Positions 5,280 through 60,275 of a stretch of 64,000 nt of DNA are shown one piece after another (positions within the stretch are counted from its first letter, which is position 1; each line of letters begins with the position of its first letter). Under the pieces are notes generated by a model, which was given only the letters and a program-made list of their open reading frames with translations, was not told the DNA's origin and ran no database searches. Made by a program: the position numbers and the translations under genes. The DNA is from an uncultured Geobacter sp. (GTDB taxonomy: Bacteria > Desulfobacterota > Desulfuromonadia > Geobacterales > CAIOGM01), in contig CAIOGM010000077.1 in NCBI GenBank assembly GCA_903857795.1, positions 15,121 through 79,120 on the forward strand, read 5' to 3'.

Positions 5280-5475
5280 CTCCTGCCACATTTGTCCGGG
5301 GATGAGGCGGGATTGGAATATTTTCGTTGTCAAACAGATCGGCCTGAAGTAAAGTCACCGGGCCCGGATTTTACCTACGGGCCAATTTATTGGTAACTAT
5401 TAATTTTTTGTGGCAAGAATTCGCCATCTGACAGTTCATTATTCACTGTCTGCTTTCAGAGAAAGGTTCATCCAC

Positions 5476-6595
5476 ATGAGACATAGTTGGTACTGTCGGA
5501 GTGTCTCGGCGCTGCTCCTCGGGTTCTTTTCCACTTCAGCACTGGCCGTGCCGGTCATGGAGAGCGGCGGAATCCATGTCGCAGGCGAACGGTATGGGAT
5601 CGATCAGGACGGCAACCTGGTGCGGTTGTTGCCGTCTCCCATCGCCTCGGTTGGACGCTCTGCGTCACGGCTCTCATTGCCACCGCAGGGGGCGAGCGTC
5701 AGGTACGGTCTCGACCAGAACGGCGTCTGCCAGGCTCTCCTTCCCGAGAGCGCTCCGACGACTCCGGTCGCCGCCGTAGCTCCCCTGGAGACGGCGTCTC
5801 TGCCGAAGACGGCCGCCGCCACACCCGCTGTCGCCGCGAATCCGCAAACGCTTATCAAGGGTGAACCGACGGTGCCTCTCCGGCAGAGCTCTCCGACCGG
5901 AGTTGAACGGGGCCGGATCCTGACGCTGCTCTCCGCGACTCTCCGGAGGTGTCGCTCGCTGCTTGCGGGCTTCGGGCCGGTCCCGGTCACCGGCCACCCC
6001 ACCGTTTCAGGCCGTATGGCGTGTGTGGTAGTCCCTCCCGCACCCCGGGCAACAGTGCCGCTGCGTCAGGGGCTGGCGACTCCTCCCCCTCCGCGTTACT
6101 CGCTTCTCATCGATTCCCTGGCGGTCAAGAAAAAGGCGCGGCCGCTGGCGAAGAAGCTGGCGTACCAGGGGGTGGCGGTGGTCGACAGCAGATCGGAAAA
6201 AACGACGGTCACGATCTACCGGTTGGTAGTGGGAACCTTCCCCACAAGAGAGAAGGCCCAGGAGTGTCTCACCAGGGTGGCGCCGAGGTTGAAGGGGGCC
6301 TACCTCATCAGCAGCAACGGCGTTCACGGTGTCTACTGCGGTTCCTGGTACCGGCGGGCAATGGCAGAGGAACAGCTTGCCCGATTCCGAGGGGGGGGGG
6401 CGCCGTCTTACTATCCGTCACGAGAGCGTGGCGATCACGCATACTACCATCCTTGCCGGCTCCTACTGCAGCCGAGAGGCGGCCCGTGATGTCTCGCTCC
6501 GGCTTCGGCTTATGGGGATTCCCGCCGTAGTGGTGGTCGATACCGACTCCCTGGCGCAGTCCCGCGTTGGGCTGAAACGGGAAAATGCGGTCTGA
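5476..6595 (+). pseudogene. Secreted Pro/Ala-rich SPOR-like protein, reading frame broken at a G10 tract (6391-6400); as written it terminates at 6489
   Basis: Signal peptide (LLLGFFSTSALAVP) and a SPOR-like block YRLVVGTFPTREKAQECL. After the G10 run a second SPOR-like block (ILAGSYCSREAARDVSLRLRLMGIPAVVV) continues in another frame (ORF 6329-6595). G9 instead of G10 would fuse the two. Confidence 0.55.
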
Positions 6596-10141: not shown

Positions 10142-10161
10142 CTAAAGGGGAGAAATCTGTA

Positions 10162-10965
10162 ATGCTTCCCGAACATATGACCGACTGGCATAGCCACCTC
10201 CTTCCCGGGCTTGACGACGGCGCTGCGACAGTGGAGGAGGCTCTTGAAATGGCCCTTATCCTGTCCAAGGCCGGGTTCCGCCAGGTCTGCTGTACTCCCC
10301 ACTGCATCAGGGGGAGCTATGACGCTACGGGCGGCCAGGTCCGGGCCGCCGTGCACTCCCTGCAGGGTGAGCTCGACGCCGCCGGGATCGATATTCGGCT
10401 ACGTCCCGGTCGGGAGCATTATCTCGATGAGTTCCTCCCCGACTATCTCGGGACCGATCCTCTCACCCTTGGCGACAGTCGTTACTTCCTCCTGGAGATC
10501 CCCTCCACCCAGGACCCCGAGTATGTGAAGCAGGCCTGCTACCGGATCCGGATCAAGGGGTTCATACCTGTCATAGCTCACCCCGAACGCTGCTCTCTCC
10601 TTTCCCCCCCCAGGCCTAAACCAGTTCAGGGTTCAGGGTTCAAGGTTCAAAACTCTCGGTTTGGTCGTCTGCTCCGCCGCCTCACCGGATCAAACCGGCT
10701 GCGACATGCCTCGGCCTCTGACGCCTCACCGGCGGCGCCCCACACCTCACCCCTTCTCGACTATCTCGTGGAGATTGGCGGGCAGTTCCAGGGGAACATC
10801 GGTAGCCTGGCAGGCATCTACGGGGAAATCCCGGAACGCCGTTCCCGCAGGTATCTGGCGGCAGGGCTCTATACCCTCTATGGCAGCGATGCGCATTCCC
10901 CTCTGACCCTCGAGACGTGGCTCGGTGAAGGGCTGGCGCTTCTGCCGGGAGCAGAGGAGTCTTGA
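10162..10965 (+). CDS. CpsB/CapC-type PHP-family protein-tyrosine phosphatase with a roughly 50-aa low-complexity insertion
   Basis: PHP motifs DWHSHLLPGLDDG, CTPH, IAHPER and GSDAH. The start is moved to ATG 10162. The insertion SPPRPKPVQGSGFKVQNSRFGRLLRRL... is encoded partly by four heptamer units at 10624-10651. Confidence 0.7.
   Translation: MLPEHMTDWHSHLLPGLDDGAATVEEALEMALILSKAGFRQVCCTPHCIRGSYDATGGQVRAAVHSLQGELDAAGIDIRLRPGREHYLDEFLPDYLGTDPLTLGDSRYFLLEIPSTQDPEYVKQACYRIRIKGFIPVIAHPERCSLLSPPRPKPVQGSGFKVQNSRFGRLLRRLTGSNRLRHASASDASPAAPHTSPLLDYLVEIGGQFQGNIGSLAGIYGEIPERRSRRYLAAGLYTLYGSDAHSPLTLETWLGEGLALLPGAEES
10624..10651 (-). repeat. Heptamer array A (inverse orientation): GTTCAGG GTTCAGG GTTCAAG GTTCAAA, inside the CpsB-like CDS
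   Basis: Counted directly. It is the same unit family as the arrays at 15054, 17927, 33126 and 35912, on the opposite strand. Confidence 0.85.
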
Positions 10966-15053: not shown

Positions 15054-15109
15054 GAACATAGAACACAGAACCCAGAACATTGAACCCAGAACCCAGAACC
15101 CTGAACCTC
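15054..15109 (+). repeat. Heptamer array B: 8 units GAACATA GAACACA GAACCCA GAACATT GAACCCA GAACCCA GAACCCT GAACCTC
   Basis: Counted directly. It lies between the tgt stop (15122) and the ugd start (15021). Confidence 0.85.
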
Positions 15110-16854: not shown

Positions 16855-17754
16855 TCATCCCTCCCGCAGGCGTTGCAGGGCGTCTTTGACCAAGGGGAAG
16901 AGGAAGACCGTTTTTGGTGCCGCACCGTGAAGCAGGTGCTCCCGGTCGTTTCGTCCGCGGCCGGTGGTGCTCCCTGCATCGACCCAGTTGGCGGCCCGGT
17001 AGCAGGTACCGGAGTAGCGGGCGGTATCCACCAGCGTTTCCAGGAGCAGCGGCCGGACCGCGTAGAGTCGCTCCCAGTCATCTGCAATCCGGTCCCCTGC
17101 CATGGCCAGTACCTTGCTGGCCAGATTTTTTATCCGGACCGTTGGCAGGATGAGGAATCTGCTGTTGGTGACGATCTTTTGCAGATTCTGCTTTCGGGCG
17201 GCGGCGTCCCATCCCAGGTACTCGTCCCGCGCGGCCATGCGCCATGCCGGGCTTGAAAATTGCAGGCAGCCGACCACCACCGGGTCGGGATGGTGGATCC
17301 GGATGAAGTAGCGCAGATGTGCCCCGAAGGGGATCCGGTATCCGAGATAGTGGTGACTCTCGATCAGGGAGCGCCACAACCGCTGCTCTTCCTTGCCGGA
17401 GACGAGCACCAGTTCTACGGGGGCGAACTCCCCCACCGTCCCGGTGAGTATCGGCGTCTCCAACGACAGAGTCTTCACGGCAGTTCGTGACCCACGCGGT
17501 TTGCCGGGACGGCCCGGAGGGAGCAGCAGCACCCCCTCCGCGGCCAGCTCTTCGAGAAAATCCCGGCATTCGATGGTCTTGAGTTTGCCCGTGGGGCGTT
17601 GCCACTGGAGTAGTTCGCAGAGCGTACTGGCCAGTTCTGTTCGGGAAAGCCCAGGAAAATCGCCGATCACGGAGGTGATGATAGCCATCTCTGCCTCGCT
17701 GACCGGTTGTCCGCAAAAATGCGCACTCTTGCTATAGGGAACAGTCATCTCCAC
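16855..17754 (-). CDS. DUF4338 domain protein (DruA-like), orphan
   Basis: Motifs HHYLGY, NSRFLILP and LLETLVD...GTCYRAANW...GSTTGRGRNDR match my memory of Pfam DUF4338. The N-terminal roughly 70 aa looks like a winged-helix domain. Confidence 0.65.
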   Translation of the reverse strand: MEMTVPYSKSAHFCGQPVSEAEMAIITSVIGDFPGLSRTELASTLCELLQWQRPTGKLKTIECRDFLEELAAEGVLLLPPGRPGKPRGSRTAVKTLSLETPILTGTVGEFAPVELVLVSGKEEQRLWRSLIESHHYLGYRIPFGAHLRYFIRIHHPDPVVVGCLQFSSPAWRMAARDEYLGWDAAARKQNLQKIVTNSRFLILPTVRIKNLASKVLAMAGDRIADDWERLYAVRPLLLETLVDTARYSGTCYRAANWVDAGSTTGRGRNDREHLLHGAAPKTVFLFPLVKDALQRLREG

Positions 17755-17926: not shown

Positions 17927-18024
17927 GAACCCAGCACCTTGAACCAAGAACCTTGAACCCAGAACCTTGAACATAGAACCTTGAACATAGAACCTTGAAC
18001 ATAGAACCTTGAACCCAGAACCCT
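17927..18024 (+). repeat. Heptamer array C: 14 units including (GAACCTT GAACATA)x3
   Basis: Counted directly. It ends 3 nt from the ykgJ-like stop codon (18028-18030). Confidence 0.85.
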
Positions 18025-18027
18025 TCT

Positions 18028-18306
18028 TTACGCCTTTTTCTTCCGTCGGGTGAGTCCCAGTTCCTGCCGGTAGCCGCAGCCGTCGTGGAGCCACCGCAGT
18101 TCCGGGACCAGCTCTTCGGTCAGCTTGATGCATTCAGGGTTGATCTGAAAGCGGCGGTCATAGATGCTGCAGTCACGGCTGACCACGTCCAGGTAGCGAC
18201 AGGGGATGCTCGTATAGAAGATGGCCCCGTCTTGGTCTTCGATCTTCTCGAAGCAGCACCGGCCGCAGTGGTGGCAGAGTTCTTCCCAGATTCCAGTATC
18301 GCTCAT
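18028..18306 (-). CDS. YkgJ/UPF0153 family cysteine-cluster protein
   Basis: CHHCGRCCFEK and the later C..L....CSIYDRR pattern. The start is placed at ATG 18306 (18318 is the alternative), not at the long ORF start 18552. Confidence 0.65.
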   Translation of the reverse strand: MSDTGIWEELCHHCGRCCFEKIEDQDGAIFYTSIPCRYLDVVSRDCSIYDRRFQINPECIKLTEELVPELRWLHDGCGYRQELGLTRRKKKA

Positions 18307-18387
18307 GGGGGGGAGCATACAGGCAAGTGGTGGACGTGTCAATAAAGGTAAAAACGGCGGCCGAGATAACCGGTTCATCTTTCTTGG

Positions 18388-18416
18388 TTGAACGGAGCGT
18401 CGGGGCAAGGTATAAG
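18388..18416 (+). promoter_or_regulatory. Sigma-70-type promoter for ppx
   Basis: TTGAAC, a 17-nt spacer, then TATAAG, about 40 nt upstream of ATG 18458. Confidence 0.4.
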
Positions 18417-18457
18417 AGCGAGGAGACGGTTTTGGATTATGAACTCCGGAGGATGAG

Positions 18458-19993
18458 ATGACCGTACCATCAAACCGGCTGGCTGCTATTGATATCGGCA
18501 CCAACTCCATCCGCTGCATCGTGGTGGAGGCGGCGCCCAACGGGAAGTTCAAGATCCTGGATGACGAAAAGGCTACGGTCCGGCTGGGCGAAGGGCTCTA
18601 TCGGACCGGGGAGCTGACCCCCGCCTCGTGGCAGCGGGCGATCGAGGCCCTGGTCCGGATGAAAAAGGTGGTGGACGGCTACCGGGTCCGGGCAATCGAG
18701 GCGGTGGCCACCAGTGCGGTGCGCCAGGCCGCCAACGGCCGGGAGTTCATCGAACTGGTGGACCGGGAGGTCGGCATTACCGTCCAGGTGATCTCCGGTG
18801 AAGAGGAGGCGGAGCTGGCTGTTCTCTCGGCACGGCACAACTTCGACATGGAAGGGATTCCCCATGCCATGATCGATATTGGCGGGGGGAGCGTTGAGAT
18901 CATCACCGCCTTCGGCGGGCATGTGGAAGAGCTGGTCTCCCTGCCGCTGGGAGCGGTGGTTCTGACCGAGCGATTCATCAAGAGTGACCCGGTTGCCGCC
19001 ATGGACGAAGAGCGGCTCAGGAAATACATCCGGAGCTCCCTTCATGATCGTTTCGAGGAGGGTTTCCCGGCTTACTGCCTCCTCGGTTCCGGCGGGACCA
19101 TGAACGCCATCGCCTCCATGGTCATGGCCATGGGGAACGAGGGTTATCAGTCGGTTCACGGGTACGATATCCTCCGCTCCCAGGTGGTTCATCTCTTGGC
19201 CATGCTCCTGCGCAAGGGGTTCGGGGAGCGGCGGAGCGTCCCGGGGCTCAACGCCGACCGCTCCGATATCATCATCGCCGGGGTGACGGCGGTGGATGAG
19301 CTGATGCGGTTTTTCGGCGCAAACATCCTCAGGATCAATGAGCGGGGAATCCGGGAAGGGCTGATTCTCCGGGGGCTCCGCCGGCACGGGCTCCTCCCTC
19401 AGGAGGAGCAGCCACCACGGAGCTGGCGCGAGGTGATTCTGGAATTTGCCCGCTCCTGCCACTTCGACGAGGAGCACTCTCTCCATGTGACTCGTCTCTG
19501 TCTGACGCTCTTCGACCACCTTGCAGGGCAGTTCTGCCTGGGTGAGCGGGAGCGTCAGGTGCTGGAGGCGGCGGCCATTCTCCACGATGTCGGCTACCTC
19601 ATCAGCTACGAGAGCCATCACAAACACACCTATCTCCTGATCCGGCACGCGGAGCTCTTCGGTTTCACCCCCCGCGAGCGGGAGCTCATCGCCAATGTGG
19701 CCCGCTACCACCGGAAGTCCCTCCCCAAGAAGAAACACGAGAGTTATGCCCGTCTGGCGCCGGCTGACCGGCTCCTGGTGCAGCAGTTGGGCGGCATCCT
19801 CCGTCTCTGTGACGGTCTCGACCGCCGCCGGAACAGCCAGGTCCGTACCCTCGATTGTTCCCTCACCTCATCGACGTTTACCATCACGGTGGTGGATCAA
19901 GAGGATGTCTCGGTGGAGCTCTTCGGTGGCAGCGCCAAGGGGGATCTCTTCGAGATCGCCTTCGGCCGAAAGCTGCTGCTGACCACGGTGTGA
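18458..19993 (+). CDS. ppx: Exopolyphosphatase / pppGpp phosphohydrolase (Ppx/GppA) with C-terminal HD domain
   Basis: IDIGTNSIRCIVVE and IDIGGGSVE actin-like ATPase motifs, plus the HD block ILHDVGYLISYESHHKH. Confidence 0.85.
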   Translation: MTVPSNRLAAIDIGTNSIRCIVVEAAPNGKFKILDDEKATVRLGEGLYRTGELTPASWQRAIEALVRMKKVVDGYRVRAIEAVATSAVRQAANGREFIELVDREVGITVQVISGEEEAELAVLSARHNFDMEGIPHAMIDIGGGSVEIITAFGGHVEELVSLPLGAVVLTERFIKSDPVAAMDEERLRKYIRSSLHDRFEEGFPAYCLLGSGGTMNAIASMVMAMGNEGYQSVHGYDILRSQVVHLLAMLLRKGFGERRSVPGLNADRSDIIIAGVTAVDELMRFFGANILRINERGIREGLILRGLRRHGLLPQEEQPPRSWREVILEFARSCHFDEEHSLHVTRLCLTLFDHLAGQFCLGERERQVLEAAAILHDVGYLISYESHHKHTYLLIRHAELFGFTPRERELIANVARYHRKSLPKKKHESYARLAPADRLLVQQLGGILRLCDGLDRRRNSQVRTLDCSLTSSTFTITVVDQEDVSVELFGGSAKGDLFEIAFGRKLLLTTV

Positions 19994-24262: not shown

Positions 24263-24380
24263 AACACGGAGCAACGGAGCAACGGAGAATATAAGTGTTA
24301 ACCGACAGGCGGGCTCAACTGAGCGCCTGACATCGAATTTTCACCTCTGGGTAGGCTCCGTTACTCCGTTGCTCCGTGTT
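24263..24380. repeat. 25-bp inverted repeat (24/25 match) around a 68-nt structured spacer, between convergent genes
   Basis: AACACGGAGCAACGGAGCAACGGAG (24263-24287) pairs with CTCCGTTACTCCGTTGCTCCGTGTT (24356-24380). An inner hairpin CAGGCG-N12-CGCCTG lies in the spacer. Confidence 0.8.
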
Positions 24381-29980: not shown

Positions 29981-30180
29981 ATGAAAACGATCGGTGGGGC
30001 GAGGATGTGCAGGCTCCTTGAAGCCGAGGGGTGGGAACTTGCTCGCATTACTGGAATTCACCACATTTTGTCAAGATAGGCAGTAATCTCCTGATTACCG
30101 TTCCGGTTCACGGTAATCAGGATCTGAAAATCGGTTTGCAGAAAGCCATTATGAAGCAGGCGGCAATTGCGGAAGCTTGA
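29981..30180 (+). pseudogene. hicA: HicA-like mRNA interferase toxin, inactivated by a 1-nt frameshift in a T4 run (30066-30069)
   Basis: Frame 1 gives MKTIGGARMCRLLEAEGWELARITGIHHIL then a stop at 30077. A shifted frame continues FVKIGSNLLITVPVHGNQDLKIGLQKAIMKQAAI to a stop at 30180. Together they form a full HicA/YcfA pattern. Confidence 0.6.
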
Positions 30181-30307
30181 GTTGTAGTGCGGAGTCCAAG
30201 CGTGTCAATCAATATAGGTGACTTTCTCAATTTTGTTGCACGGCAAGAAGGAGTAGTGCAGACTTTTCTCCGTGTCTCAGTGTCTCCGTGGTGAAAGGGG
30301 TAACAAC

Positions 30308-30739
30308 ATGAAAGTCGAACAGATCTCCATCTTTATCGAAAACAAGTCGGGCCGGCTGGCCGAGGTCTCCCGGGTCCTGGGGGAGACCGGGGTGAATATT
30401 CGGGCGCTGTCACTGGCCGATACCTCTGATTTCGGCATCCTCCGGCTCATCGTCGACGACTCCGAGAAGGCCAAGGGGGTGCTCAAGGAGAAGGGGTTCA
30501 CCGTCAGCAAGACCGAGGTCGTGGCGGTGGAGGTCCCGGACCAGCCGGGGGGGCTGGCCCGCATCCTCCAGGTGCTGGACAGCGACGCCATCAATGTGGA
30601 GTATATGTACGCCTTCGTGGAGCGGTGCGACGGCAATGCGGTCATCATCTTCCGGTTCGACGAGACCGACCGGGCCATCCGGACGCTCCTCGCCAAGGGG
30701 TTCAACATCCTTGACGGAAGCCAACTTTACAGTATGTAG
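30308..30739 (+). CDS. Tandem ACT-domain protein
   Basis: Two ACT repeats ([24 protein letters not shown] and [23 protein letters not shown]). The start is at ATG 30308. Confidence 0.8.
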
Positions 30740-30764
30740 GGATCAACCCGCGGAGGGGGAGAAG

Positions 30765-31904
30765 ATGAAACAGTATGTGGTGGCAGTAGTGGCAGCGGCT
30801 GTGATGCTCAGTTCCCTGGAGGCCATGGCGGCGGGGACTGTCCGGATCGGGGCGCTCTTCTCGGTGACCGGGCCGGCATCGTTTTTGGGGGAACCGGAGA
30901 AGAAAACCCTGGAGATGCTGGTGAAGGAGGTGAACGCCAAGGGGGGGATCAAAGGGAACAAGATCGAGCTCTTCATCGAGGATACTCAGGGTGACGTCAC
31001 CAAGGCAAAGCAGCTTGTCTCCAAGCTGATCAAGAATGACAAGGTAGTCGCGATTATTGGCCCCAGCACCACCGGCGATACCATGGCCATTATTGACGAC
31101 GTGGAAAAGGCCGGAATTCCGATGGTATCCTGTGCTGCCGGGGTCAAGATCACTGATCCGGTGAAGAAGTGGGTCTTCAAGACCCCCGCCAACGACCATG
31201 TGGCCGGGGAGAAGCTCCTCGACTATCTGGCTGCCAAGAAGCAGAAGAGCCTGGCGCTCCTGACCGTCTCCGATGCCTATGGCCAGTCAGGCCGGGAGCA
31301 GCTCAAGGCGTTGGCCGCCAAGAAGGGGTTCTCCGTGGTGGCCGATGAGCTCTACTCCCCCAAGGACACGGACATGACCTCCCAGCTCACCAAGATCAAG
31401 GGGAGCAAGGCCGACGCCATCATCTGCTGGGGGACCAACCCGGGCCCGGCGGTGGTGACCCGCAACGTGAAGCAGCTGGGGATCAAGATCCCGCTCTATC
31501 AGAGCCACGGGGTCGCCTCCAAGAAGTATATCGAGCTGGCCGGTGCCGAAGCTGCCGAAGGGGTCGTCCTCCCGGCGGGGAAGCTGACTATCTACGACAA
31601 GATGAAGAAGAGCGACCCGCAGTTCAAGGTGTTGAGCGACTACAACCTTGCCTACAAGAAGAGCTACGGGGTTGAGGCCTCCACCTTTGGCGGCTATGCC
31701 TATGACGCCTTCGAGCTCATTTCCGAGGCGATCAGGAAATCGGGAACCACGCCGGAGCAGATCCGCAACGGCATCGAGCAGGTCAAGAAGCTCGTGGGGG
31801 TCTCGGGGCTCTTCACCATGTCCCCAACGGATCACAACGGGCTCGACCAGTCGGCGTTCGAGATGGTGAAGGTCGTCAAGGGCGACTGGGACTTGGCCAA
31901 ATAA
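30765..31904 (+). CDS. ABC amino-acid (Leu/Ile/Val/aromatic type) substrate-binding protein 1
   Basis: Signal peptide and the type-I PBP block IGALFSVTGPASFLGEPE. It is a paralogue of the next gene. Confidence 0.8.
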   Translation: MKQYVVAVVAAAVMLSSLEAMAAGTVRIGALFSVTGPASFLGEPEKKTLEMLVKEVNAKGGIKGNKIELFIEDTQGDVTKAKQLVSKLIKNDKVVAIIGPSTTGDTMAIIDDVEKAGIPMVSCAAGVKITDPVKKWVFKTPANDHVAGEKLLDYLAAKKQKSLALLTVSDAYGQSGREQLKALAAKKGFSVVADELYSPKDTDMTSQLTKIKGSKADAIICWGTNPGPAVVTRNVKQLGIKIPLYQSHGVASKKYIELAGAEAAEGVVLPAGKLTIYDKMKKSDPQFKVLSDYNLAYKKSYGVEASTFGGYAYDAFELISEAIRKSGTTPEQIRNGIEQVKKLVGVSGLFTMSPTDHNGLDQSAFEMVKVVKGDWDLAK

Positions 31905-31916
31905 AGGAGTTATGTC

Positions 31917-33056
31917 ATGAAGCGATCTGCCGCTGCCTTCTGTCTGTTTGTCTTCACCGTCGCTTGGGCTACTCTCTGTCAGGCGAGCCAGCCCATCAGG
32001 ATCGGCGCCCTCTTCTCCGTCACCGGTCCCCCCTCGTTTCTCGGGGAGCCGGAGCGTAACGCCGCCCAGATGGTGGCCGATCAGATCAACAAGGGGGGAG
32101 GGATCAAGGGGCGGCAGGTTCAGCTCATCGTCTACGACACCCAGGGAGACGCCACCAAGGCGGTGCAGCTGGCCAACAAGCTGATCAAGGATGACAAGGT
32201 GGTCGCCATCATCGGCCCCAGCACCACGGGGGAGACCATGGCGGTGCTGCCGGTGGTGGAGAAGGCCGGCATTCCGCTCATCTCCTGCTCCGCCGGCCGC
32301 AAGATCACCGAACCGGTGAACCACTGGGTCTTCAAGACCGCCCAGAACGACAACCTGGCCGTGACCAGGATCTATGACTATCTCCAGAAGAAGAAGCTGA
32401 CCAGGGTGGCGCTCCTCACCGTCTCCGATGGCTTCGGCGCCTCAGGGCGCGAGCAGCTCAAGGCCCAGGCCGCCGCTCACGGCATTCAGCTGCTGGTAGA
32501 CGAGACCTACGGCCCTAAGGATACGGACATGACCGCCCAGCTCACCAAGATCAAGGGGACCAAGGCTGATGCGGTCATCTGCTGGGGGACCAACCCCGGT
32601 CCGGCGGTCATCGCCCGCAACGCCAAGCAGCTGGGGCTCAAGCTGCCGCTCTTCATGAGCCATGGTGTCTCCTCCAAGAAGTTCATCGATCTGGCAGGGG
32701 ATGCCGCCGAAGGGGTCACGCTCCCCTCGGGTAAGGTGATCGTGGCCGACGTCCTCCCCGCGTCGGATCCCCAGAGGAAGTGGCTCATCTCCTTTGTGAA
32801 GGAGTATCAGAAACTCTACAAAGTGGAGGGGGATCATTTTGCCGGGCATGCCTGGGACGCCATGATGCTCCTCAAGGGGGCGCTGGAGAAGGGGGATGAC
32901 ACCCCGGCCGCCATCGCCGGGAACCTTGAGAAAACGAAGGAGTTCCACGGAATCGGCGGCATCTTCACCTACTCCCCCACCGACCATGCCGGGCTCACGA
33001 AGGATGCCTTCGTCCTGGTAGAGATTAAGAACAAGGACTGGGTGCTCGTAAAATAG
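31917..33056 (+). CDS. ABC amino-acid substrate-binding protein 2
   Basis: Signal peptide and IGALFSVTGPPSFLGEPE. It is colinear with copy 1 along its whole length. Confidence 0.8.
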   Translation: MKRSAAAFCLFVFTVAWATLCQASQPIRIGALFSVTGPPSFLGEPERNAAQMVADQINKGGGIKGRQVQLIVYDTQGDATKAVQLANKLIKDDKVVAIIGPSTTGETMAVLPVVEKAGIPLISCSAGRKITEPVNHWVFKTAQNDNLAVTRIYDYLQKKKLTRVALLTVSDGFGASGREQLKAQAAAHGIQLLVDETYGPKDTDMTAQLTKIKGTKADAVICWGTNPGPAVIARNAKQLGLKLPLFMSHGVSSKKFIDLAGDAAEGVTLPSGKVIVADVLPASDPQRKWLISFVKEYQKLYKVEGDHFAGHAWDAMMLLKGALEKGDDTPAAIAGNLEKTKEFHGIGGIFTYSPTDHAGLTKDAFVLVEIKNKDWVLVK

Positions 33057-33125
33057 TTCAATGTTCACTGTTCAGGGTTCAGGAGGCAATGTTCATAAGT
33101 ACAGGGTTATGGGTGTTCTTGACTC

Positions 33126-33251
33126 AACCCTGAACCCTGAACCCTGAACCCTGAACCCTGAACCCTGAACCCTGAACCTTGAACCTTGAACCTTGAACCT
33201 TGAACCTTGAACCTTGAACCTTGAACCTTGAACCTTGAACCCTGAACCTTG
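33126..33251 (+). repeat. Heptamer array D: 18 units = (AACCCTG)7 (AACCTTG)9 AACCCTG AACCTTG; two inverse units at 33070-33083
   Basis: Counted unit by unit with no interruption. The 3' flank AACAAAGGTTTTATCC runs into the livH ATG at 33268. Confidence 0.9.
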
Positions 33252-33267
33252 AACAAAGGTTTTATCC

Positions 33268-34152
33268 ATGGATTTATTACAGCAGTTGACCCAGTACGCC
33301 TTTTCCGGCTTTTCCACGGGGGCAATTTATGCCCTCATCGGGCTGGGGTTCGCCATCATCTATAACTCCACCGGGATCATCAACTTCGCCCAGGGGGAGT
33401 TCGTCATGCTGGGGGGGGTCCTCACCTATTTCTCTCTTACGGTGCTGAGGCTCCCCTACCTTGTGGCCATGGCCGTGGCCGTGGCCGTCACCACCGCGGC
33501 AGGAGCGGCCTTCGAGCGTCTGACCATCCGGCCGCTGAAGAGCCCGTCCCCCTTGAGCCTGGTGATCATCACCATCGGCGGGAGCATCTTCATCCGCGGG
33601 GTGGCCATGCTCCTCTGGGGGAAGGATACCCACGCGCTCCCCCCCTTCTCCGGTAACGACCCGCTCACCGTCGGCGGGGCCAGCATCATGCCCCAGCATC
33701 TCTGGATCTTCGGCATCACCCTGCTGATCATCGCCGCCAACAAGTTCTTCTTCTACTACACCATCAGCGGCAAGGCGATGAGGGCCTGCTCCCACAACCG
33801 GACCGCGGCAAGCCTCGTGGGGATCGATGTCCGGAAGATGGTGCTCCTCTCCTTTGTCATCAGCTCCGCCGTCGGCTCTCTGGCCGGGATCATCATCGCC
33901 CCGCTCACCATGACCGCCTACGATGTGGGGGTCATGCTGGGGCTCAAGGGGTTCTGCGCCGCCATCATCGGCGGCATGAGCAGCGGCTTCGGCACCGTGC
34001 TGGGGGGGCTGCTCCTGGGACTGCTGGAGTCCTTCGGCGCCGGGCTCATCTCCTCGGGGTACAAGGACGCCATCGCCTTCATCGTCTTGCTCCTCATCCT
34101 CTTCATCCGCCCCCAGGGGCTCTTCTCCAAGGCGCAGACGGAAAGGGTGTAA
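33268..34152 (+). CDS. livH: Branched-chain amino-acid ABC permease LivH
   Basis: Typical N-terminus LQQL..G...GAIYALIALG and a multi-TM profile. Confidence 0.85.
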   Translation: MDLLQQLTQYAFSGFSTGAIYALIGLGFAIIYNSTGIINFAQGEFVMLGGVLTYFSLTVLRLPYLVAMAVAVAVTTAAGAAFERLTIRPLKSPSPLSLVIITIGGSIFIRGVAMLLWGKDTHALPPFSGNDPLTVGGASIMPQHLWIFGITLLIIAANKFFFYYTISGKAMRACSHNRTAASLVGIDVRKMVLLSFVISSAVGSLAGIIIAPLTMTAYDVGVMLGLKGFCAAIIGGMSSGFGTVLGGLLLGLLESFGAGLISSGYKDAIAFIVLLLILFIRPQGLFSKAQTERV

Positions 34153-34156
34153 CCGA

Positions 34157-35125
34157 TTGAAACGCGATTATCTGCTCTTTCTCCTCTTCACCCTGGTGGT
34201 CCTTGTGGCGCCGTTGGCCTTCGAGGGGGGGTACCTGCTCAACGTCCTGGTCTTCATGGGGATCAACACCATGCTGGCCGTGGCGCTGAACCTGTTGTTG
34301 GGCTTTGCCGGCCAGATCTCCCTGGGGCACGCCGCCTTCTTCGGGCTGGGGGCCTACATCTCCGGGGTCCTCACCGCCAACCACGGGGTCAACCCCTGGG
34401 TCGCACTCCCCATCGCCGCCCTCTCCGTGGGGGTCATCGCCTTCCTCCTGGGGTTCCCGATTCTCAAGCTCAAGGGGCACTACCTGGCAATGGCCACCCT
34501 GGGGTTCGGGATCATCGTCTTCATCGTCTTCAACGAGACCGTTGAGATCACCGGTGGTCCTTCCGGGCTCACCGGCATCCCCACCATGAAGATCGGCGCC
34601 ATGGAGTTCCAGGGGGAGATGAAGAGCTACTACCTCATCTGGGGGTTCACCCTCCTGACCATGCTCCTCTCCATCAACCTGGATCACTCCCGTATCGGCC
34701 GGGCGCTCCGGGCGATCCACGACTCCGAGGTCGCCTCCCGGGTCATGGGGGTCAACGCCCGCTTCCTGAAGGTGCAGGTCTTCACCCTCTCGGCGGTCAT
34801 CTCGGCGGTGGCCGGGAGCCTCTATGCCCACACCATGACCTTCGTCTCCCCCTCATCCTTCGGTTTCAACTTCTCGGTGGAGCTGGTGACCATGGTGATC
34901 ATCGGCGGGCTCGGGAGCATCTTCGGGTCGTTTTTGGGGGCGGCCCTCCTGACCTTCCTGCCGGAGCTCCTCCGGGTGGTGCAGGACTACGATATCGTGG
35001 TCTACGGTCTGCTCCTCATCGTCATGACCATGTATATGCCCAAGGGGCTGGCCGGCGGCGTCGCATCCCTGGCGCGGCTCTTGCGCCCCGCGAAGAAGAG
35101 GACGGTGGACCATGCTCAGGGTTGA
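34157..35125 (+). CDS. livM: Branched-chain amino-acid ABC permease LivM
   Basis: GQISLGHAAFFGLGAY motif and a TTG start. It overlaps livG. Confidence 0.85.
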   Translation: MKRDYLLFLLFTLVVLVAPLAFEGGYLLNVLVFMGINTMLAVALNLLLGFAGQISLGHAAFFGLGAYISGVLTANHGVNPWVALPIAALSVGVIAFLLGFPILKLKGHYLAMATLGFGIIVFIVFNETVEITGGPSGLTGIPTMKIGAMEFQGEMKSYYLIWGFTLLTMLLSINLDHSRIGRALRAIHDSEVASRVMGVNARFLKVQVFTLSAVISAVAGSLYAHTMTFVSPSSFGFNFSVELVTMVIIGGLGSIFGSFLGAALLTFLPELLRVVQDYDIVVYGLLLIVMTMYMPKGLAGGVASLARLLRPAKKRTVDHAQG

Positions 35126-35864
35126 GGGGATAACCCAGCTCTTCGGCGGACTCACGGCTCTTGAAGAGGTCACCTTTACGGTGGGGAAGGGGAGCATCAC
35201 CGGCGTCATCGGTCCCAACGGCGCGGGAAAGACCACCCTGTTCAACATCGTCACCGGGCTCTATACCCCGAGCTCCGGCAGGGTCTTCCTTGACGGGAAG
35301 GAGATCACCTGTTTCCCGCCGGAGCGGCTGGCCCCCCTGGGGCTGGTCCGGACTTTTCAGAACATCGAGATGTTCCACCAGATGACGGTGCTGGAGAACG
35401 TCCTGGTGGGGCTCCATACCCGGAGCCGGAGCGGGATGATCTCCTGCGCCCTCAAGCTGCCGTGGCACCTGGCCGAGGAGCGGCGGCTCCACGCCGAGGC
35501 GATGAAGTGGCTGGAGTTCTGCGGCATCGCCGACCTGGCGGAGCTGGAGGCCAGGGCGCTCCCCTTCGGCAACTGCCGGCTGGTGGAGATCGCCCGGGCC
35601 ATGGCGGTGAACCCGAAGCTGCTCCTCATGGACGAACCGGCCGCCGGGCTCAACAGCCGCGAGACCGCCGACCTGGAGCTTCTCATAAGAAAGATCAGAG
35701 ATACGGGGGTAACCGTGGTCCTGGTGGAGCACGATATGGAGCTGGTCATGGAGATCTGTGACGCCATCGTGGTCCTGAATCTGGGGAAGAAGCTGGCCCA
35801 GGGGAGTCCGCGGGAGATCCAGGAAAACCCCGACGTCATCAGGGCGTACTTGGGAGAAGGCTAA
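35112..35864 (+). CDS. livG: ABC ATPase LivG
   Basis: Walker A GPNGAGKTT, signature and Walker B LLLMDEPAAGL, and the C-terminal AYLGE motif. Confidence 0.9.
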   Translation: MLRVEGITQLFGGLTALEEVTFTVGKGSITGVIGPNGAGKTTLFNIVTGLYTPSSGRVFLDGKEITCFPPERLAPLGLVRTFQNIEMFHQMTVLENVLVGLHTRSRSGMISCALKLPWHLAEERRLHAEAMKWLEFCGIADLAELEARALPFGNCRLVEIARAMAVNPKLLLMDEPAAGLNSRETADLELLIRKIRDTGVTVVLVEHDMELVMEICDAIVVLNLGKKLAQGSPREIQENPDVIRAYLGEG

Positions 35865-35911
35865 CGGCGGTATCTAGAACGGCGGTTCAATGTTCGAGGT
35901 TCAAGGTTGAA

Positions 35912-36002
35912 AACCCCGAACCCCGAACCTTGAACCCCGAACCTTGAACCCTGAACCCTGAACCTTGAACCCTGAACCTTGAACCCAGAACATTGAACAT
36001 CG
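35912..36002 (+). repeat. Heptamer array E: 13 units (AACCCCG x3, AACCTTG x4, AACCCTG x3, AACCCAG, AACATTG, AACATCG); inverse segment at 35884-35908
   Basis: Counted directly. The 3' flank AACAGGTTTT runs into the livF ATG at 36013. Confidence 0.9.
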
Positions 36003-36012
36003 AACAGGTTTT

Positions 36013-36756
36013 ATGCTGCGACTCAAGAACATCAATAGCTACTATGGGCAGGTTCACGCCCTCAAGAACGTCTCGCTGCACCTGGCCAAGGGGGAGATCG
36101 TGACCCTTATCGGCGCCAACGGTGCGGGGAAGAGCACGCTCCTCAACACCCTGTCGGCCATCACTCCGGCCCGCTCCGGTGAGCTGCTCTTCGAGGGGAA
36201 CAGTATCACCACCCTCTCCCCCTCCCGCATCGTGGAGTTGGGGATCTCCCAGGTCCCCGAGGGGCGACAGGTCTTCAAGCCGCTCTCCGTGGAGGACAAC
36301 CTGGAGTTGGGCGCCTACCTGCGCGCCCGGAAACGGGCCGAGAAGGGGGCCATCAGGGACGACCTGGCGATGATCTATGAGCTCTTTCCCCGGCTCAAGG
36401 AGCGGCGCAAGCAGATGGCCGGCACCCTCTCCGGCGGTGAGCAGCAGATGCTCGCCATCGGCCGGGCGCTCATGGCGCGCCCCCGACTCCTCCTCCTGGA
36501 CGAGCCCTCCATGGGGCTGGCCCCTCTGGTGGTGCAGGAGATCTTCAGGGTCGTCGAAGCCCTCCGGAAAGAGAAGGGGACCACGGTCCTGCTGGTGGAG
36601 CAGAACGCCAAGGCGGCCCTCACCCTGGCGGACCGCGGCTATGTCATGGAGACCGGCAAGGTCATCCTGGAGGGGCCCTCCGGGGAGCTCCTGGAGAACC
36701 ACGAAGTTCAGCGGGCGTACCTGGGAAAAGAGAAGAAGGAGATCTGGGAGAGATGA
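36013..36756 (+). CDS. livF: ABC ATPase LivF
   Basis: Walker [19 protein letters not shown] signature, Walker B LLLLDEPS and the AYLG tail. Confidence 0.9.
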
Positions 36757-38066
36757 TGAGCCAGATATGGGATAGAGAGCACGAATGCATGCCCCGTGAG
36801 GAGCTGGAGCAGCTGCAGCTGGAGCGGCTCCAGGCGACCATCAACCGGGCTTACAAGAACGTCACCTGCTACCGGAACAAGTTCAAGGAGTCGGGGATCC
36901 TTCCCGAGGACATCCACTCCCTGGCGGATCTGGCGAAGCTCCCCTTTACCACCAAGGATGACCTCCGGGTCAACTACCCCTACGGGATGTTCGCGGTACC
37001 TTTGCGGGAGGTGGTCAGGATTCACGCGTCATCGGGGACCACCGGCAAGGCGACGGTGGTGGGATACACGAGGAACGATATCAAAACCTGGTCGAACCTG
37101 GTGGCCCGCTTCATGACCGCAGCCGGGGTGACCCATGACGATCTGGTGCAGATCTCCTTCGGCTACGGCCTCTTTACCGGCGCATTCGGCCTTCATTACG
37201 GGGCCGAGACCATCGGCGCCTCGGTCATCCCCATGGGTGCCGGCAATACCGAAAAGCAGATCACGATCATGCAGGACTACCGCTCCACCGTGCTGGTGGG
37301 GACCCCCAGCTACGCCCTGACCATCGCCGATCGGATGGAGCAGATGGGGATTGACCCCAAGAGCCTGTCGCTCAGGGTGGGGCTCTTCGGCGGTGAGCCC
37401 TGGAGCGAGGGGATGCGCCGGGAGCTCGAGAGCCGGCTCTTCATCAGCGCCACCGACAACTACGGCCTCTCCGAGGTCATCGGACCCGGCGTGGCGGGCG
37501 ACTGCCAGCAGAAGAGCGGCATGCACCTCTATGAAGACGCCTTTTACCCGGAGATCATCGATCCGCAGAGCGGAGCGCTCCTCCCCCCGGGGAGTGTGGG
37601 GGAGCTGGTTCTGACCACCCTCACCAAGGAGGCGCTCCCCATGCTCCGCTACCGGACCCGGGACATCACCAGCCTCGACTACTCCCCCTGCTCCTGCGGC
37701 CGGACCCTGGTCCGGATGAAGAAGACCATGGGGCGCACCGATGACATGCTTATCATCAAGGGGGTCAACGTCTTCCCCTCCCAGATAGAGGAGGTTCTCT
37801 TCGCCATCGACGGCTGCGAGCCCCATTACCAGATCGTGGTGGACAAGAAGGGGCCCATGGATCTCCTGGAGGTGGACATCGAGGTGACCGAGAACATCTT
37901 CTTCGATGAGATGAAACGGCAGCGGCGGTTTCTGGAGATGGTGGAGAAGAAGATCGCCTCTACCCTCGGCGTCGGCGCTACGGTACGCCTGGTGGAGCCG
38001 GGGCGGATCCCCCGGCATGAAGGGAAGGCGGTCCGGGTGGTGGACAAGAGGCGCAGCGAAGAGTGA
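36753..38066 (+). CDS. paaK: Phenylacetate-CoA ligase family, copy 2
   Basis: [30 protein letters not shown] and [10 protein letters not shown]. It is colinear with copy 1. Confidence 0.8.
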
Positions 38067-38420
38067 ACCTGAACACCGATCAGCTCAAACGTGGCATCCG
38101 GACGTTGCAGTCATCCCTGGAGCTCTACACGCGGGCCGAAGCGGAGAGCGTCGAGCGGGAGGTCTTTCGCAACGCCATTGTCAAGGGGTTCGAGTTGACC
38201 CCGGAGACAGCGTTCAAGCTCCTGAAAAAGGCGCTGAAAGAGTTCGGTCACGGGCGAGAAGGCTCGATTCGACACCGATCAAGGAGCTGCTGCGCCTCTG
38301 TGCCGCTCACGGCATGATGACGGTGGCGGAGGTCGAACGCTGGTTTGCCTATCGTGACAATCGCAATGATACGGCTCATGGTTATGGTGAGGAGTTTGCA
38401 AGGACGACACGAACCGCATC
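38063..38420 (+). pseudogene. Nucleotidyltransferase substrate-binding (HI0074/HEPN) protein, frameshifted near 38250-38270 and 3'-truncated; no MNT partner
   Basis: Frame 1 gives RNAIVKGFELTPETAFKLLKKALKEFG. A second frame gives STPIKELLRLCAAHGMMTVAEVERWFAYRDNRNDTAHGYGEEFA, which is the R-x4-6-H HEPN motif region. Confidence 0.55.
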
Positions 38421-38443
38421 GATCGCCGGAAAAGGAGTAAATC

Positions 38444-38662
38444 ATGGGTGTTGCACTGAAACTCGAAGAAATGAGCATTGCCGATAAACTCCAGACGATG
38501 GAGATCCTTTGGAATGACCTGTGCCACCATGCGCAGGATATCGCTGTTCCCCAGTGGCATCAAGAGGTGCTTGCCATGCGTGAAGCGGATCTTCGAGACG
38601 GTAAAGAGCAATTCAGCGATTGGGAGTCTGCCAAGGAAACGATCCATGAGCTAGTGAAATGA
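38444..38662 (+). CDS. Putative addiction-module antitoxin (TIGR02574-like)
   Basis: 72 aa; the pattern LEEMSIADKLQTMEILWNDL ... WHQEVLAMREADLRDGKEQFSDWESAK is typical of that family. Confidence 0.55.
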   Translation: MGVALKLEEMSIADKLQTMEILWNDLCHHAQDIAVPQWHQEVLAMREADLRDGKEQFSDWESAKETIHELVK

Positions 38663-38674
38663 AGATCAGTCTTC

Positions 38675-38974
38675 TTGCCGCTGCCCAGCAGGCTGCTAGT
38701 AAACGGTTTCCGTTTCTATGAAGTACAAGAAAACGGGCTTGGCAGCTACTTCCTCGACTCGCTTTATGCGGACATCGATTCGCTGATGTTTTTTGCGGGG
38801 ATGCATCAAATCTTTGATGACGGGTACCACAGGATGTTAGCAAAGCGTTTCCCTTTTGCCGTTTACTATCGAATGAAAGGTAAACGAGTACTTGTCTATG
38901 CGGTTCTCGATTGTCGCAGAAACCCGGCATGGAGCAGAAAAAGGCTGCGCCTCGCATCTGTTCGGGAGACGTGA
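38675..38974 (+). CDS. ParE/RelE-superfamily toxin (TTG start; the ATGA-coupled ATG at 38659 is out of frame)
   Basis: FYEVQENGLGSYF ... RFPFAVYYRMKGKRVLVYAVLDCRRNP is the plasmid-stabilisation toxin pattern. Confidence 0.55.
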   Translation: MPLPSRLLVNGFRFYEVQENGLGSYFLDSLYADIDSLMFFAGMHQIFDDGYHRMLAKRFPFAVYYRMKGKRVLVYAVLDCRRNPAWSRKRLRLASVRET

Positions 38975-38977
38975 CGG

Positions 38978-39248
38978 TACCTGGACTTCTTCCTCGCGCT
39001 ATGGGCTGCAGGGGCAGTAGAGCGACTGACGATTGTTGAGACAAAGGGTTGTCATCTCGCCGGCAACGATGATACCGAGTACAAGTAGAAGCTGCTGGAC
39101 CTCTGTTCCGGGTCGTTCACCTGGGAAAACGCCACCTGCATCGGTGAGCTGGAGTTGGTCTATAATTCGCAAACTACCGTTAACTGCGCGCTGGTGTCCC
39201 TGAAAGAAAGATTGGCGGTTCGAACTCGGCGGGCTCGTCGAACGTTAG
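38978..39248 (+). pseudogene. Remnant of a PD-(D/E)xK nuclease domain (restriction/helicase C-terminus-like) with an in-frame TAG
   Basis: The translation RYLDFFLALWAAGAVERLTIVETKGCHLAGNDDTEYK*KLLDLCS shows a D...E-x-K motif. No start codon or N-terminal domain is present. Confidence 0.3.
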
Positions 39249-59063: not shown

Positions 59064-60014
59064 ATGGGAGATGCCGGGGTGTTCAATCACAAACATATCA
59101 TTGCCCTGCGGGACCTCTCCGCCGATGACATCCGGCTCCTGCTGACCACGGCGGAGAATCTCAAGGAGATCAACAGTCGGGATATCAAGAAGGTGCCGAC
59201 GTTGCGGGGAAAGACCATCATCAACCTCTTCTACGAGGCGTCTACCCGGACCCGCACCTCCTTCGAGATCGCGGCCAAACGGCTCTCCGCCGACACGGTG
59301 AATATCTCTCCCTCAACCAGCTCCTCAACCAAGGGGGAGACCCTCTCGGATACGGCGCTGAACCTGCTGGCCATGAAGCCGGATATCATCGTCATGCGCC
59401 ATAATGTCTCCGGCGCCCACTACTTCCTGGCCAAGCGGCTCTCCTGCTCCATCATCAACGCCGGCGACGGTGCCCATGAACACCCCTCTCAGGGTCTTCT
59501 GGATATGCTGACCATGAAGGAGCGGTTCGGCCGCCTGGACGGGCTCAAGGTGGCCATCGTGGGGGACATTACCCACAGTCGTGTGGCCCGCTCCAATATC
59601 CAGGGGCTCACCAAGATGGGTTCCCAGATCTTCGTGGCCGGCCCCCCCACCATGATGCCACCCGGGGTGGAGCGTCTCGGGAACGTGACGGTCTGCAACG
59701 ATATGCGCGAGGCGGTGGATGGCGCCGACGTGGTGATGATGCTCCGGATCCAGCTGGAGCGGCAGGGAAAGACGCTGCTCCCCACCATGAAGGAGTACTC
59801 CCGCTACTACGGCCTCAACAGGGAAACGTTGAAGCTGGCCCGGCCCGATGCCATGGTCATGCACCCCGGTCCCATCAACCGCGGGGTGGAGCTCTCCTCG
59901 GAGGTGGCCGACTGCGATCAGTCTCATATTCTGAACCAGGTGGAGAACGGCGTGGCGGTCCGGATGGCCATGCTCTACCATGTCTGCGGCGGTGGAGCGG
60001 TTGAGGCAGGTTGA
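59064..60014 (+). CDS. pyrB: Aspartate carbamoyltransferase catalytic subunit
   Basis: [17 protein letters not shown] and HPGPINRG. Confidence 0.9.
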
Positions 60015-60044
60015 GGTTGAGGTTGAGGTAGAGGTAGAGGTGGA
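60009..60044 (+). repeat. Hexamer array (GGTTGA)3 (GGTAGA)2 GGTGGA at the pyrB stop, followed by a G-run
   Basis: Counted directly. Further GGTGGA and GGTTGA copies lie at 59991 and 59999 inside the last pyrB codons. Confidence 0.8.
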
Positions 60045-60056
60045 GGGGGGGGCAGC

Positions 60057-60275
60057 ATGGAACTGTTCGTTAATCTCCAGATTGAAAGACTTCCTGAAGG
60101 CTACTTCCTCGCAACGGCTGATGATGTTCAGGGCCTAGTCGCCCAGGGGAGAACCCTGGCCGAGACTCTTGAAATTGCACGTGATATCGCGAGAAGTCTA
60201 GTCGAAGCACGTACTGAACGCCATCTTGAACAGCACCCGTCTGTTGAATCTGATGAGTTCCTTACGGTGTCATGA
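60057..60275 (+). CDS. Orphan HicB-like (UPF0150) protein inserted between pyrB and pyrC
   Basis: LPEGYFLATADDVQGLVAQGRTLAETLEIARDIARSLVEA fits the HicB N-domain pattern. No hicA-like ORF lies on either side. Confidence 0.55.
   Translation: MELFVNLQIERLPEGYFLATADDVQGLVAQGRTLAETLEIARDIARSLVEARTERHLEQHPSVESDEFLTVS

Follow-up and report, generated by a model that had tools for sequence, protein, structure and literature searches.

The livG–livF junction described here lies in a 64,000-nt stretch of contig CAIOGM010000077.1 from an uncultured Geobacter sp. that originates from pond metagenomes; we refer to this whole stretch as the window, and all coordinates are positions within it. livG and livF stand in fourth and fifth place in an operon of the livKHMGF type. 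The livG stop codon (TAA) occupies 35862-35864 and the livF ATG is at 36013, and the 148-nt spacer between them contains a heptanucleotide repeat arranged in a short and a long arm of opposite orientation. The features of the junction are as follows.

35112-35864 (+): livG-like ATP-binding cassette (ABC) ATPase gene (open reading frame (ORF) list, translation, synteny in 73 loci)
35865-35883 (+): non-repeat stretch of the spacer, 19 bases past the livG stop (sequence)
35884-35908 (+): short 5' arm, 3.6 inverted heptamers, GGTTCAA then TGTTCGA then GGTTCAA then GGTT (sequence; Tandem Repeats Finder (TRF), period 7)
35909-35911 (+): GAA, the symmetry centre between both arms (sequence)
35912-36005 (+): long 3' arm, 13 heptamers of the form AAC-NNN-G plus a terminal AAC (sequence; TRF)
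36006-36012 (+): AGGTTTT, a weak Shine-Dalgarno-like AGG with the spacer ahead of the livF ATG (sequence)
36013-36756 (+): livF-like ABC ATPase gene

The thirteen heptamers of the long arm run from 35912 to 36002 and the closing AAC occupies 36003-36005. Throughout this arm the four bases GAAC are invariant, and the triplets that separate them are CCC, CTT, CCT, CCA, ATT and ATC. We observed that the short arm, GGTTCAATGTTCGAGGTTCAAGGTT, is an inverted piece of the same heptamer repeat as the long array: TRF reported period 7 in both stretches alike (the score of the livG–livF array being 104, and that of a sister array between livK and livH 202), and under strict identity the short arm matched the long one at 19–23 of 25 positions at every in-phase register. 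The abundance of the repeat in the window is far above chance, since the two-unit pattern AACCYYGAACCYYG, with at most one mismatch, was matched 36 times against 0.43 matches expected from shuffled sequences. A first-pass annotation of this DNA had read the thirteen units, their order and the inverted segment exactly, base for base. Its match of 22 of 25 positions between the reverse complement of 35884-35908 and the 3' end of the array (35975-35999) was also reproduced. The special status given to that match did not survive, because the other in-phase registers match about equally well and the nearest one, 35926-35950, is the best of them with 23 of 25.

The nearest relatives of the LivK protein of the window (74–77% identity) are from Geobacter, Geomonas, Citrifermentans and Geotalea genomes, which places the host in the Geobacteraceae, and a protein identical to its LivG has recorded Pfam matches to ABC_tran and BCA_ABC_TP_C. 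A LivK scan restricted to one genome per species gave 80 loci with best identities of 69–77%, mostly from Geobacteraceae with some from Syntrophales, and the order of the liv genes is retained across the related loci. In 73 related operons the gap between livG and livF has a median of 11 nt and is mostly 5–12 nt long, which bears out the earlier remark that the two genes are normally adjacent and that a 148-nt spacer is unusual. At the empty sites the final codons of livG include a GGAGAAGG-type run, 4–8 nt from the livF ATG, and from this arrangement these sites are predicted to be classic cases of translational coupling. The last livG codons of the window (GGGAGAAGGCTAA) include the ancestral Shine-Dalgarno-like run serving livF; the ancestral coupled junction itself is lost.

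Orthologous liv operons thus present both empty sites (5–12 nt) and filled ones. A short GTTC arm followed by a long GAAC arm was found at livG–livF also in three relatives, L015, L016 and L040 (Geobacter sp. AOG1), as palindromes with 3.5–5 units per arm; in L015 the order is GGTTCGA-type ×4, an A-rich centre and AGAACNT ×5, and short A-rich centres are likewise present in L016, L040 and the public contig L081. Decayed remnants of GAAC arrays were observed at the same junction in L011 and L026. At the livH–livM junction, L030 carries GTTCTAC ×3 followed by at least 13 GTAGAAC units, and L044 (Geomonas limicola) has a paired array as well. The claim that the livK–livH sister element of the window shares the layout was found correct, and this layout recurs at liv junctions of L015, L016, L040, L030 and L044 and in metagenomic contigs. 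The right arms at livG–livF all terminate in ...GAACGGATT(T)ATG, and the end before the livF ATG reads GAACGGATTT(T)ATG in L015, L016, L040 and L026. On a tree of concatenated LivKHMGF proteins the GAAC-type arrays fall into at least two to three lineages in a patchy manner, with close relatives of the carriers lacking them. With the deep branches of the tree poorly resolved, this distribution may reflect either repeated gain or loss after a single origin. No target-site duplication was seen when filled and empty livG–livF sites were compared.

Other kinds of repeat occupy the same junctions in further relatives. Other Geomonas and Citrifermentans loci have AGATTA/AGATAA hexamers and TTCACNN heptamers at livG–livF, and in L038 (~10026-10241) and L030 (~8603-8724) the junction has three parts in succession, first AGATTA or AGGTTA hexamers, then a GC-rich palindrome in the centre, and then TTCACNN heptamers that end in TTCACGGATT ahead of the ATG, which parallels the GAAC elements with other units. 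L030 also has AGGTTR hexamers past its livG stop, and L061 has them between livH and livM. Between livK and livH, most relatives (L003, L005, L014, L036, L041, L045, L052, L056, L064, L066 and others) carry a conserved GC-rich stem-loop, for example CGTGGGGGCGAACAGCCGTTCGCCCCCAC then ATTTATGAGG, in the place where the window has its heptamer element.

We then considered the predicted RNA structure of the junction. The transcript of 35862-36030 folds with a minimum free energy (MFE) of −49.1 kcal/mol (z = −4.6) and that of the livK–livH element with −74.1 kcal/mol (z = −7.7), and the paired elements of relatives gave z values from −4 to −7.6. In both the MFE and the centroid folds, 35884-35908 pairs with 35926-35950, and this proximal register, with its 17-nt loop, has an ensemble probability of ~0.9. 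When the pairing was forced into ten in-phase registers, 20–23 of 25 pairs were formed with ΔG between −24 and −34 kcal/mol, the register chosen by the first-pass annotation (35975-35999) giving 22 pairs and −31.6 kcal/mol. Since the fold favours the nearest register and the ends are not unique, the array does not form the single long hairpin loop that the annotation had proposed. A terminator scan of 30000-39000 revealed no terminator-like site at either liv array, and the preferred stem (35884-35950), which continues into CTGAACCC, does not fit the intrinsic-terminator pattern of a GC-rich stem with a T-run right behind it. Rfam 15 gave 0 matches in the whole window at the gathering threshold; at the E-value threshold, the region 32900-36200 gave only a sub-threshold match to a miRNA hairpin (25.9 bits versus 100).

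The number of units differs between assemblies. Two short-read assemblies of the same species, having LivG and LivF identical to those of the window, differ in their spacers, 148 versus 141 nt, that is by one unit, and this difference fits microsatellite-type slippage; one population appears to carry alleles that are one unit apart. The homogeneous runs of the sister array (AACCCTG ×7 and AACCTTG ×10) were also counted as support for slippage. The idea of an element with defined ends, as opposed to microsatellite growth, was not supported in view of the unconserved termini, the absence of a target duplication, the 148- and 141-nt spacers and the presence of single-arm arrays in the window. The signs that the annotation itself had named as speaking against its view, namely a lack of conserved termini among copies, or gradual microsatellite-like variation at orthologous loci lacking the inverted segment, were thus found in part.

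The repeat also affects the assemblies in which it is seen. Logan unitigs of the source metagenomes break inside the livG–livF array, where the depth is 20–30 times that of the flanks, and many contigs of these metagenomes exit the array into unrelated sequence. The public contig L081 (1-222) has an mraY-like 3' end with its own arm (GTTCAAG, GTTCAAA, GTTCAAA, GTT) joined through the array to livF; the contig is probably chimeric, misjoined at the repeat during assembly, and it shows another copy of the short-arm/long-arm layout, downstream of mraY. Metatranscriptome contigs matching the Geobacter sp. AOG1 locus break at the array as well, and contigs of the AOG1-like locus contain another paired copy immediately before AGGAG and ATG; a search for RNA runs of the source organism itself gave none.

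Altogether, five arrays of the GAAC-type heptamer are present in the 64 kb, four of them between co-directional genes. Those other than the livG–livF array are the following.

33056-33101 (+): 5' arm of the sister element between livK and livH, ~6 GTTC-type heptamers (sequence, TRF, fold)
33126-33254 (+): 3' arm of the sister element, 18.4 units (sequence, TRF, fold)
15054-15107 (+): array B, single-arm, between the minus-strand genes tgt and ugd (TRF)
17927-18022 (+): array C, single-arm, 13–14 units (TRF)
10624-10649 (+): array A, four GTTC-type units in frame within the CpsB/CapC-like tyrosine phosphatase ORF 10117-10965 (TRF)

The first base of the 5' arm of the sister element is also the final one of the livK stop codon (33054-33056), and the 3' arm of this element, in which AACCCTG ×7 is followed by AACCTTG ×10 and further units, ends 13 nt ahead of the livH ATG. 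Arrays B and C are without an inverted arm and are GUUC in the mRNA sense, their folds giving z = −0.18 and z = +0.86, respectively. Array C is located 6 nt past the stop of the minus-strand ORF 18028-18552 and upstream of a DruA-domain (Druantia) ORF at 16855-17754 (−), whose Pfam match has E = 5e-48. In the ORF that contains array A, the Pfam match ends at residue 160, just ahead of the units, and a C-terminal DAH motif picks up again in the same frame after them; judged from the sequence, the region looks like an in-frame insertion of about 40–50 residues (PKPVQGSGFKVQNSRFG...). The four arrays having at least 8 units (15054-15107, 17927-18022, 33126-33254 and 35912-36005) all have the C-rich GAAC strand on the plus strand, independently of the direction of the flanking genes, and the GC skew of the window is mostly positive; with n = 4, this placement may be a replication-strand bias.

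Several distinct repeats were noticed in the window. The octamer ACGGAGCA ×2.8 and the inverted CTCCGTTR ×2.8 lie at 24266-24287 and 24356-24377, and enclose a 68-nt centre having its own stem-loop, a layout similar to that of the GAAC elements. A related octamer, TCTCCGTG ×3, is at 30267-30290, just upstream of an ATG at 30309, and AGGTTG/AGGTAG hexamers ×6.5 at 60008-60046 end ~10 nt ahead of an ATG at 60057; the AGGTTR hexamers of L030 and L061 mentioned above are of this same type.

From the comparison of units we observed that the GAAC core is kept to a degree that the rest of the unit is not. Among the 65 units of the window arrays, the 260 GAAC positions show 4 deviations, spread over 3–4 units, and GAAC is present in 61 of the 65 units, while the other three positions deviate at 68 of 195 (35%) and make up 15 different triplets. 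Outside the arrays GAAC/GTTC is neither depleted nor enriched (observed/expected 0.92), giving no sign of a restriction or modification target, and the spacer triplets have no 21-bp (two-turn) superperiod, which would have hinted at a protein bound along one face of the DNA or at derivation from a coding sequence, and show only a weak one of 14 bp.

We also surveyed metagenomes with a query of six GAAC units at 7-nt spacing, and obtained at least 120 contigs with a G+C of 0.34–0.75. Because the query itself presupposed the GAAC core, this survey gives no measure of whether GAAC prevails over other cores; the gene calls in it were heuristic (long ORFs, GC3-filtered), and the counts that follow are among the matches listed. 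Twenty contigs had an inverted arm within 120 nt, 15 of them with GTTC then GAAC and 5 with the opposite order. The former order was found in all Geobacteraceae cases. Taken as about 20 versus 5 roughly independent cases, the convergent preference has p = 0.004. RNA stem energy cannot explain this preference because both arrangements give an identical duplex. The arrays were located between co-directional genes in 35 cases, divergent genes in 16 and convergent genes in 11. Of the paired elements flanked by co-directional genes, 8 out of 9 had the shorter arm on the 5' side, or 13 out of 14 with the Geobacteraceae loci added (p = 0.002). In co-directional contexts, single arrays of the GUUC sense tend to be near the upstream stop, and those of the GAAC sense nearer to the downstream start (p = 0.006, n = 24); with all gene contexts pooled, this polarity has p = 0.07.

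One of the metagenomic contigs, L110 (G+C 0.51; region 4689-6236, also 346-2127), contains the composite [NNNGAAC]4-AWTCTTCTYCCGT-[TGAACNN]4 at least 5 times. In its wecB-like gene the composite is inserted in frame three times and is translated as EHRTLNIEHSSSVEPRTLNFEH, and a neighbouring ugd-like ORF, which is ~150 residues too long, also contains an array. Such a composite within genes resembles the Rickettsia palindromic elements.

The reading that we favour, with a probability of roughly 55%, is that the livG–livF feature is a slippage-prone intercistronic repeat, belonging to a genome-wide family of GAAC plus three variable bases, and that it has a regulatory consequence. Our confidence is high for the identity and origin of the repeat and low for its regulatory consequence. 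The comparison of junctions suggests that the ancestral livG–livF site was taken up by a (GTTC)n/(GAAC)n palindrome resembling the small ones of L016, L040 and L015, and that slippage during replication then lengthened the downstream arm, 7 nt at a time. Within the liv transcript, the short arm would pair with the nearest in-phase stretch to form an imperfect stem of ~23 bp with two mismatches just past the livG stop, and the remaining 50–60 nt, C-rich and poor in G, would stay unstructured up to the weak AGG located 5 nt before the livF ATG. The insertion would break the translational coupling, so that with a stem and an unstructured leader before the weak AGG, livF is expected to be uncoupled from livG. 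Its output may then depend on the stem-loop, as a possible site of mRNA processing or stabilisation, or on termination drawn there, and also on a single-stranded leader of variable length that could be tuned by the gain or loss of units in 7-nt steps.

Several observations weigh against this reading. The near-invariance of GAAC is explained neither by slippage with neutral mutation nor by stem stability. The latter is not its cause because single-arm arrays keep the core, and because in L015, where the arms keep the cores without complementarity of the spacers, only the cores can pair. The hairpin cannot be the function of the whole family since two arrays of the window have neither an inverted arm nor a predicted structure (z = −0.2 and +0.9), and single-arm arrays among the listed matches occur in both senses, 12 GUUC versus 11 GAAC. 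There is also no obvious benefit in slowing livF relative to livG, because both ATPases are needed together. Finally, the unit number itself rests on short-read metagenome assemblies.

Part of these observations is better accounted for at the level of DNA. A sequence-specific protein might recognise the GAAC/GTTC core every 7 bp, in direct and convergent arrays, and once bound act as a roadblock or as a nucleoid organiser; alternatively, the core could be the target of a GAAC/GTTC-specific DNA modification system. Such recognition explains the core, the strand indifference and the convergent preference better than the slippage-prone intercistronic repeat does: paired and single-arm arrays alike hold the core constant and leave the three spacer positions free to vary, single arrays are not biased toward the transcribed strand, GTTC-then-GAAC prevails, and the L015 arms keep the cores and not the spacer complementarity. 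Binding by a global regulator has been proposed for inverted heptanucleotide sets of G. metallireducens (PMC2700814), and GAAC/GTTC is the consensus of Dnd phosphorothioation, dnd genes being carried by a Geobacter species (PMC6435447). No candidate protein can be named, however, and no search for omega-type homologues was made. The observed/expected value of 0.92 outside the arrays and the missing 21-bp superperiod, with only a weak 14-bp one, do not speak for such recognition; arrays of 13–18 units with varying number look more like products of slippage than tuned operators, and the omega and Dnd parallels are analogies. We rate recognition at the DNA level as possible but doubtful, at about one chance in five. 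By the same analogies, and with somewhat less probability still, GAAC heptad arrays might form a cross-phylum class that is kept by a DNA-acting factor, either a repressor of the omega/ribbon-helix-helix type, a nucleoid protein or a Dnd-like modification. Such a factor would explain the core at 7-bp phasing, the convergent preference and the in-frame spread into coding sequences, and the liv copies would then be protein-occupied roadblocks within the operon and not RNA structures.

We consider it unlikely that the feature is a mobile element, in which a palindromic unit with inverted arms is copied to new sites, including genes, in the manner of repetitive extragenic palindromes and bacterial interspersed mosaic elements (REP/BIME), miniature inverted-repeat transposable elements (MITEs) or Rickettsia palindromic elements. 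The short-arm/long-arm layout at such unrelated junctions as livK–livH, livG–livF and downstream of mraY (L081), its patchy presence at orthologous sites, the repeated composite of L110 with its in-frame copies in the wecB-like gene, and array A in frame within the cpsB-like gene would all suit such copying. But the copies in the window share only the heptamer, with arms, centres, flanks and termini all different; the ends of the array are unmarked because all in-phase registers pair equally well; filled and empty livG–livF sites show no target-site duplication; the unit number varies by single units; and the arrays showed no linked transposase or RAYT-like gene, although no genome-wide search was made. 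For want of conserved termini among the copies and of a target-site duplication, a REP/BIME- or MITE-like class was rejected for the livG–livF repeat. Slightly less likely again is an array acting at the RNA level, where GAAC in the leader would be bound by a multimeric regulator resembling TRAP or HutP, or else by S1, Csp or CsrA, to control downstream translation. At both liv junctions, as in orthologues, 7–13 nt separate the end of the long arm from the start codon, GAAC-sense single arrays of the survey tend to be near the downstream start and GUUC-sense ones near the upstream stop, and a precedent exists in the TAACTGA heptamers just upstream of starts in Beggiatoaceae, for which binding of S1, Csp or CsrA has been proposed (PMC4679880). 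Against this, half of the single-arm arrays, arrays B and C included, are of the GUUC sense, the polarity weakens when contexts are pooled, and no binding protein is known. It is very improbable that the array or its length was produced by metagenome assembly through the repeat. The unitig breaks, the inflated depth and the apparently chimeric L081 are what one would see in such a case, but the flanks are syntenic with the 73 related operons, a spacer of 141–148 nt is present in three independent assemblies, and isolate genomes (Geobacter sp. AOG1, Geomonas limicola and G. bemidjiensis) carry arrays of the same kind.

Heptamer repeat families fill a sizeable share of the intergenic spacers of Geobacteraceae, and similar families are over-represented in several other phyla, none of them with a demonstrated function. 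The livG–livF junction amounts to a natural experiment in this respect, being empty and coupled in most relatives and occupied by 4–13 units in others. If the arrays do tune operon genes in 7-nt steps, they would represent a common and overlooked regulatory layer in environmentally important metal reducers; if instead the GAAC core is recognised by a protein, a new global factor would be in play. On the practical side, the arrays break and chimerise metagenome assemblies, as in L081.

Intercistronic palindromes are known from enterobacteria, where REP/BIME sequences, for example between malE and malF, have units of ~35 bp with a conserved sequence and are mobilised by RAYT transposases. Like the arrays described here, they are multicopy, are found between co-transcribed genes of ABC transporters and form an mRNA stem-loop past the upstream cistron; unlike them, they are not tandem heptamers and are not known to show slippage in unit number. 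Plasmids of the inc18 group carry WATCACW heptads, in sets of 7–10 units at promoter and centromere sites, as operators of the omega repressor. Its operators share with the GAAC arrays the 7-bp units, the conserved core and the combination of direct and inverted arrays, an arrangement that affects affinity in the case of omega, and differ in the sequence, WATCACW, and in being plasmid sites.

Among tandem heptamers, GGGAATC of Xanthomonas and GGGGAYT of Nostoc (of the STRR type) are intergenic, with 186 and 183 arrays in two Xanthomonas genomes and 89 marked on the Nostoc chromosome (Rehm et al. 2015, PLoS One 10:e0144275, PMC4692102); the same authors refer to a suggestion that polymerase slippage is particularly likely at units of 7 nt. 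These repeats resemble ours in that part of the unit is conserved and the rest is free, in forming some inverted pairs that converge, in lying in places inside operons (pecE-pecF), and in flanking the same genes in related species with varying length and sequence. Their core motif is different from GAAC, the units being G-tracts that are proposed to form G-quadruplexes, whereas in the window only CCT/CCC-type units yield G3 tracts, and these are on the non-coding strand. TAACTGA direct repeats have been described in Beggiatoaceae, cyanobacteria and Bacteroidetes (MacGregor 2015, Front Microbiol 6:1397, PMC4679880). They too end a few nt before starts where the canonical ribosome site is weak or absent, and are patchy across phyla; in contrast to the GAAC repeats, their unit is fixed with almost no variants, they are mostly in 2–6 copies, and there is one indirect repeat in 170 sets.

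The closest likenesses are from the Geobacteraceae themselves. In G. metallireducens, class 3 of the predicted global regulator binding sites consists of five tandem MTYCTGA units in opposite-strand pairs (Aklujkar et al. 2009, BMC Microbiol 9:109, PMC2700814), and the binding protein is a proposal only. Both these and the GAAC arrays are inverted sets of tandem heptamers, multicopy and mostly intergenic, in the same bacterial family; the difference is that ACCCTGA, as found here, departs from MTYCTGA at position 2, and that there are 4–18 units instead of a fixed five.

The published genome analysis of G. bemidjiensis (Aklujkar et al. 2010, BMC Genomics 11:490, Table S6, PMC2996986) enters Gbem_R7058-R7102 as 'Heptanucleotide repeats - consensus [AACGTTG]n AAC'. 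The sites listed there are all given as 3'-of/5'-of, that is between co-directional genes, often with 2–4 features per spacer, and the text describes neither an arm structure nor a function, the implications being stated as unknown. The same paper further lists [CAATTGA]n, [GGGGCTR]n and the hexamer [TCTYWA]n, the last being the reverse complement of the AGATWA arrays at the liv junctions of Citrifermentans and Geomonas, and reports that multicopy sequences of all kinds make up 12% of the spacers. The liv junctions are not among the sites given for the [AACGTTG]n family. The AAC-NNN-G frame, the GAAC core, the terminal AAC, the multicopy occurrence and the co-directional sites are common to the listed family and the window, and both are in Geobacteraceae; the window array has the frame ending in AAC and is multicopy between co-directional genes. 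The GTT spacer of the exact consensus is absent from the window units (CTT, CCT, CCA, ATT etc.), and AACGTT as listed is itself palindromic, while window units such as AACCYTG and AACATTG are not AACGTT. AACGTTG and GTAGAAC units do occur at the liv junctions of L016 and L030. As GTT spacers are lacking in the window, though GTT/GTA units are found in these two relatives, we regard the window arrays as a sequence variant of the [AACGTTG]n family. The livG–livF feature thus adds one more case to the tandem heptamer repeats described above, a kind of repeat that is known but unexplained.

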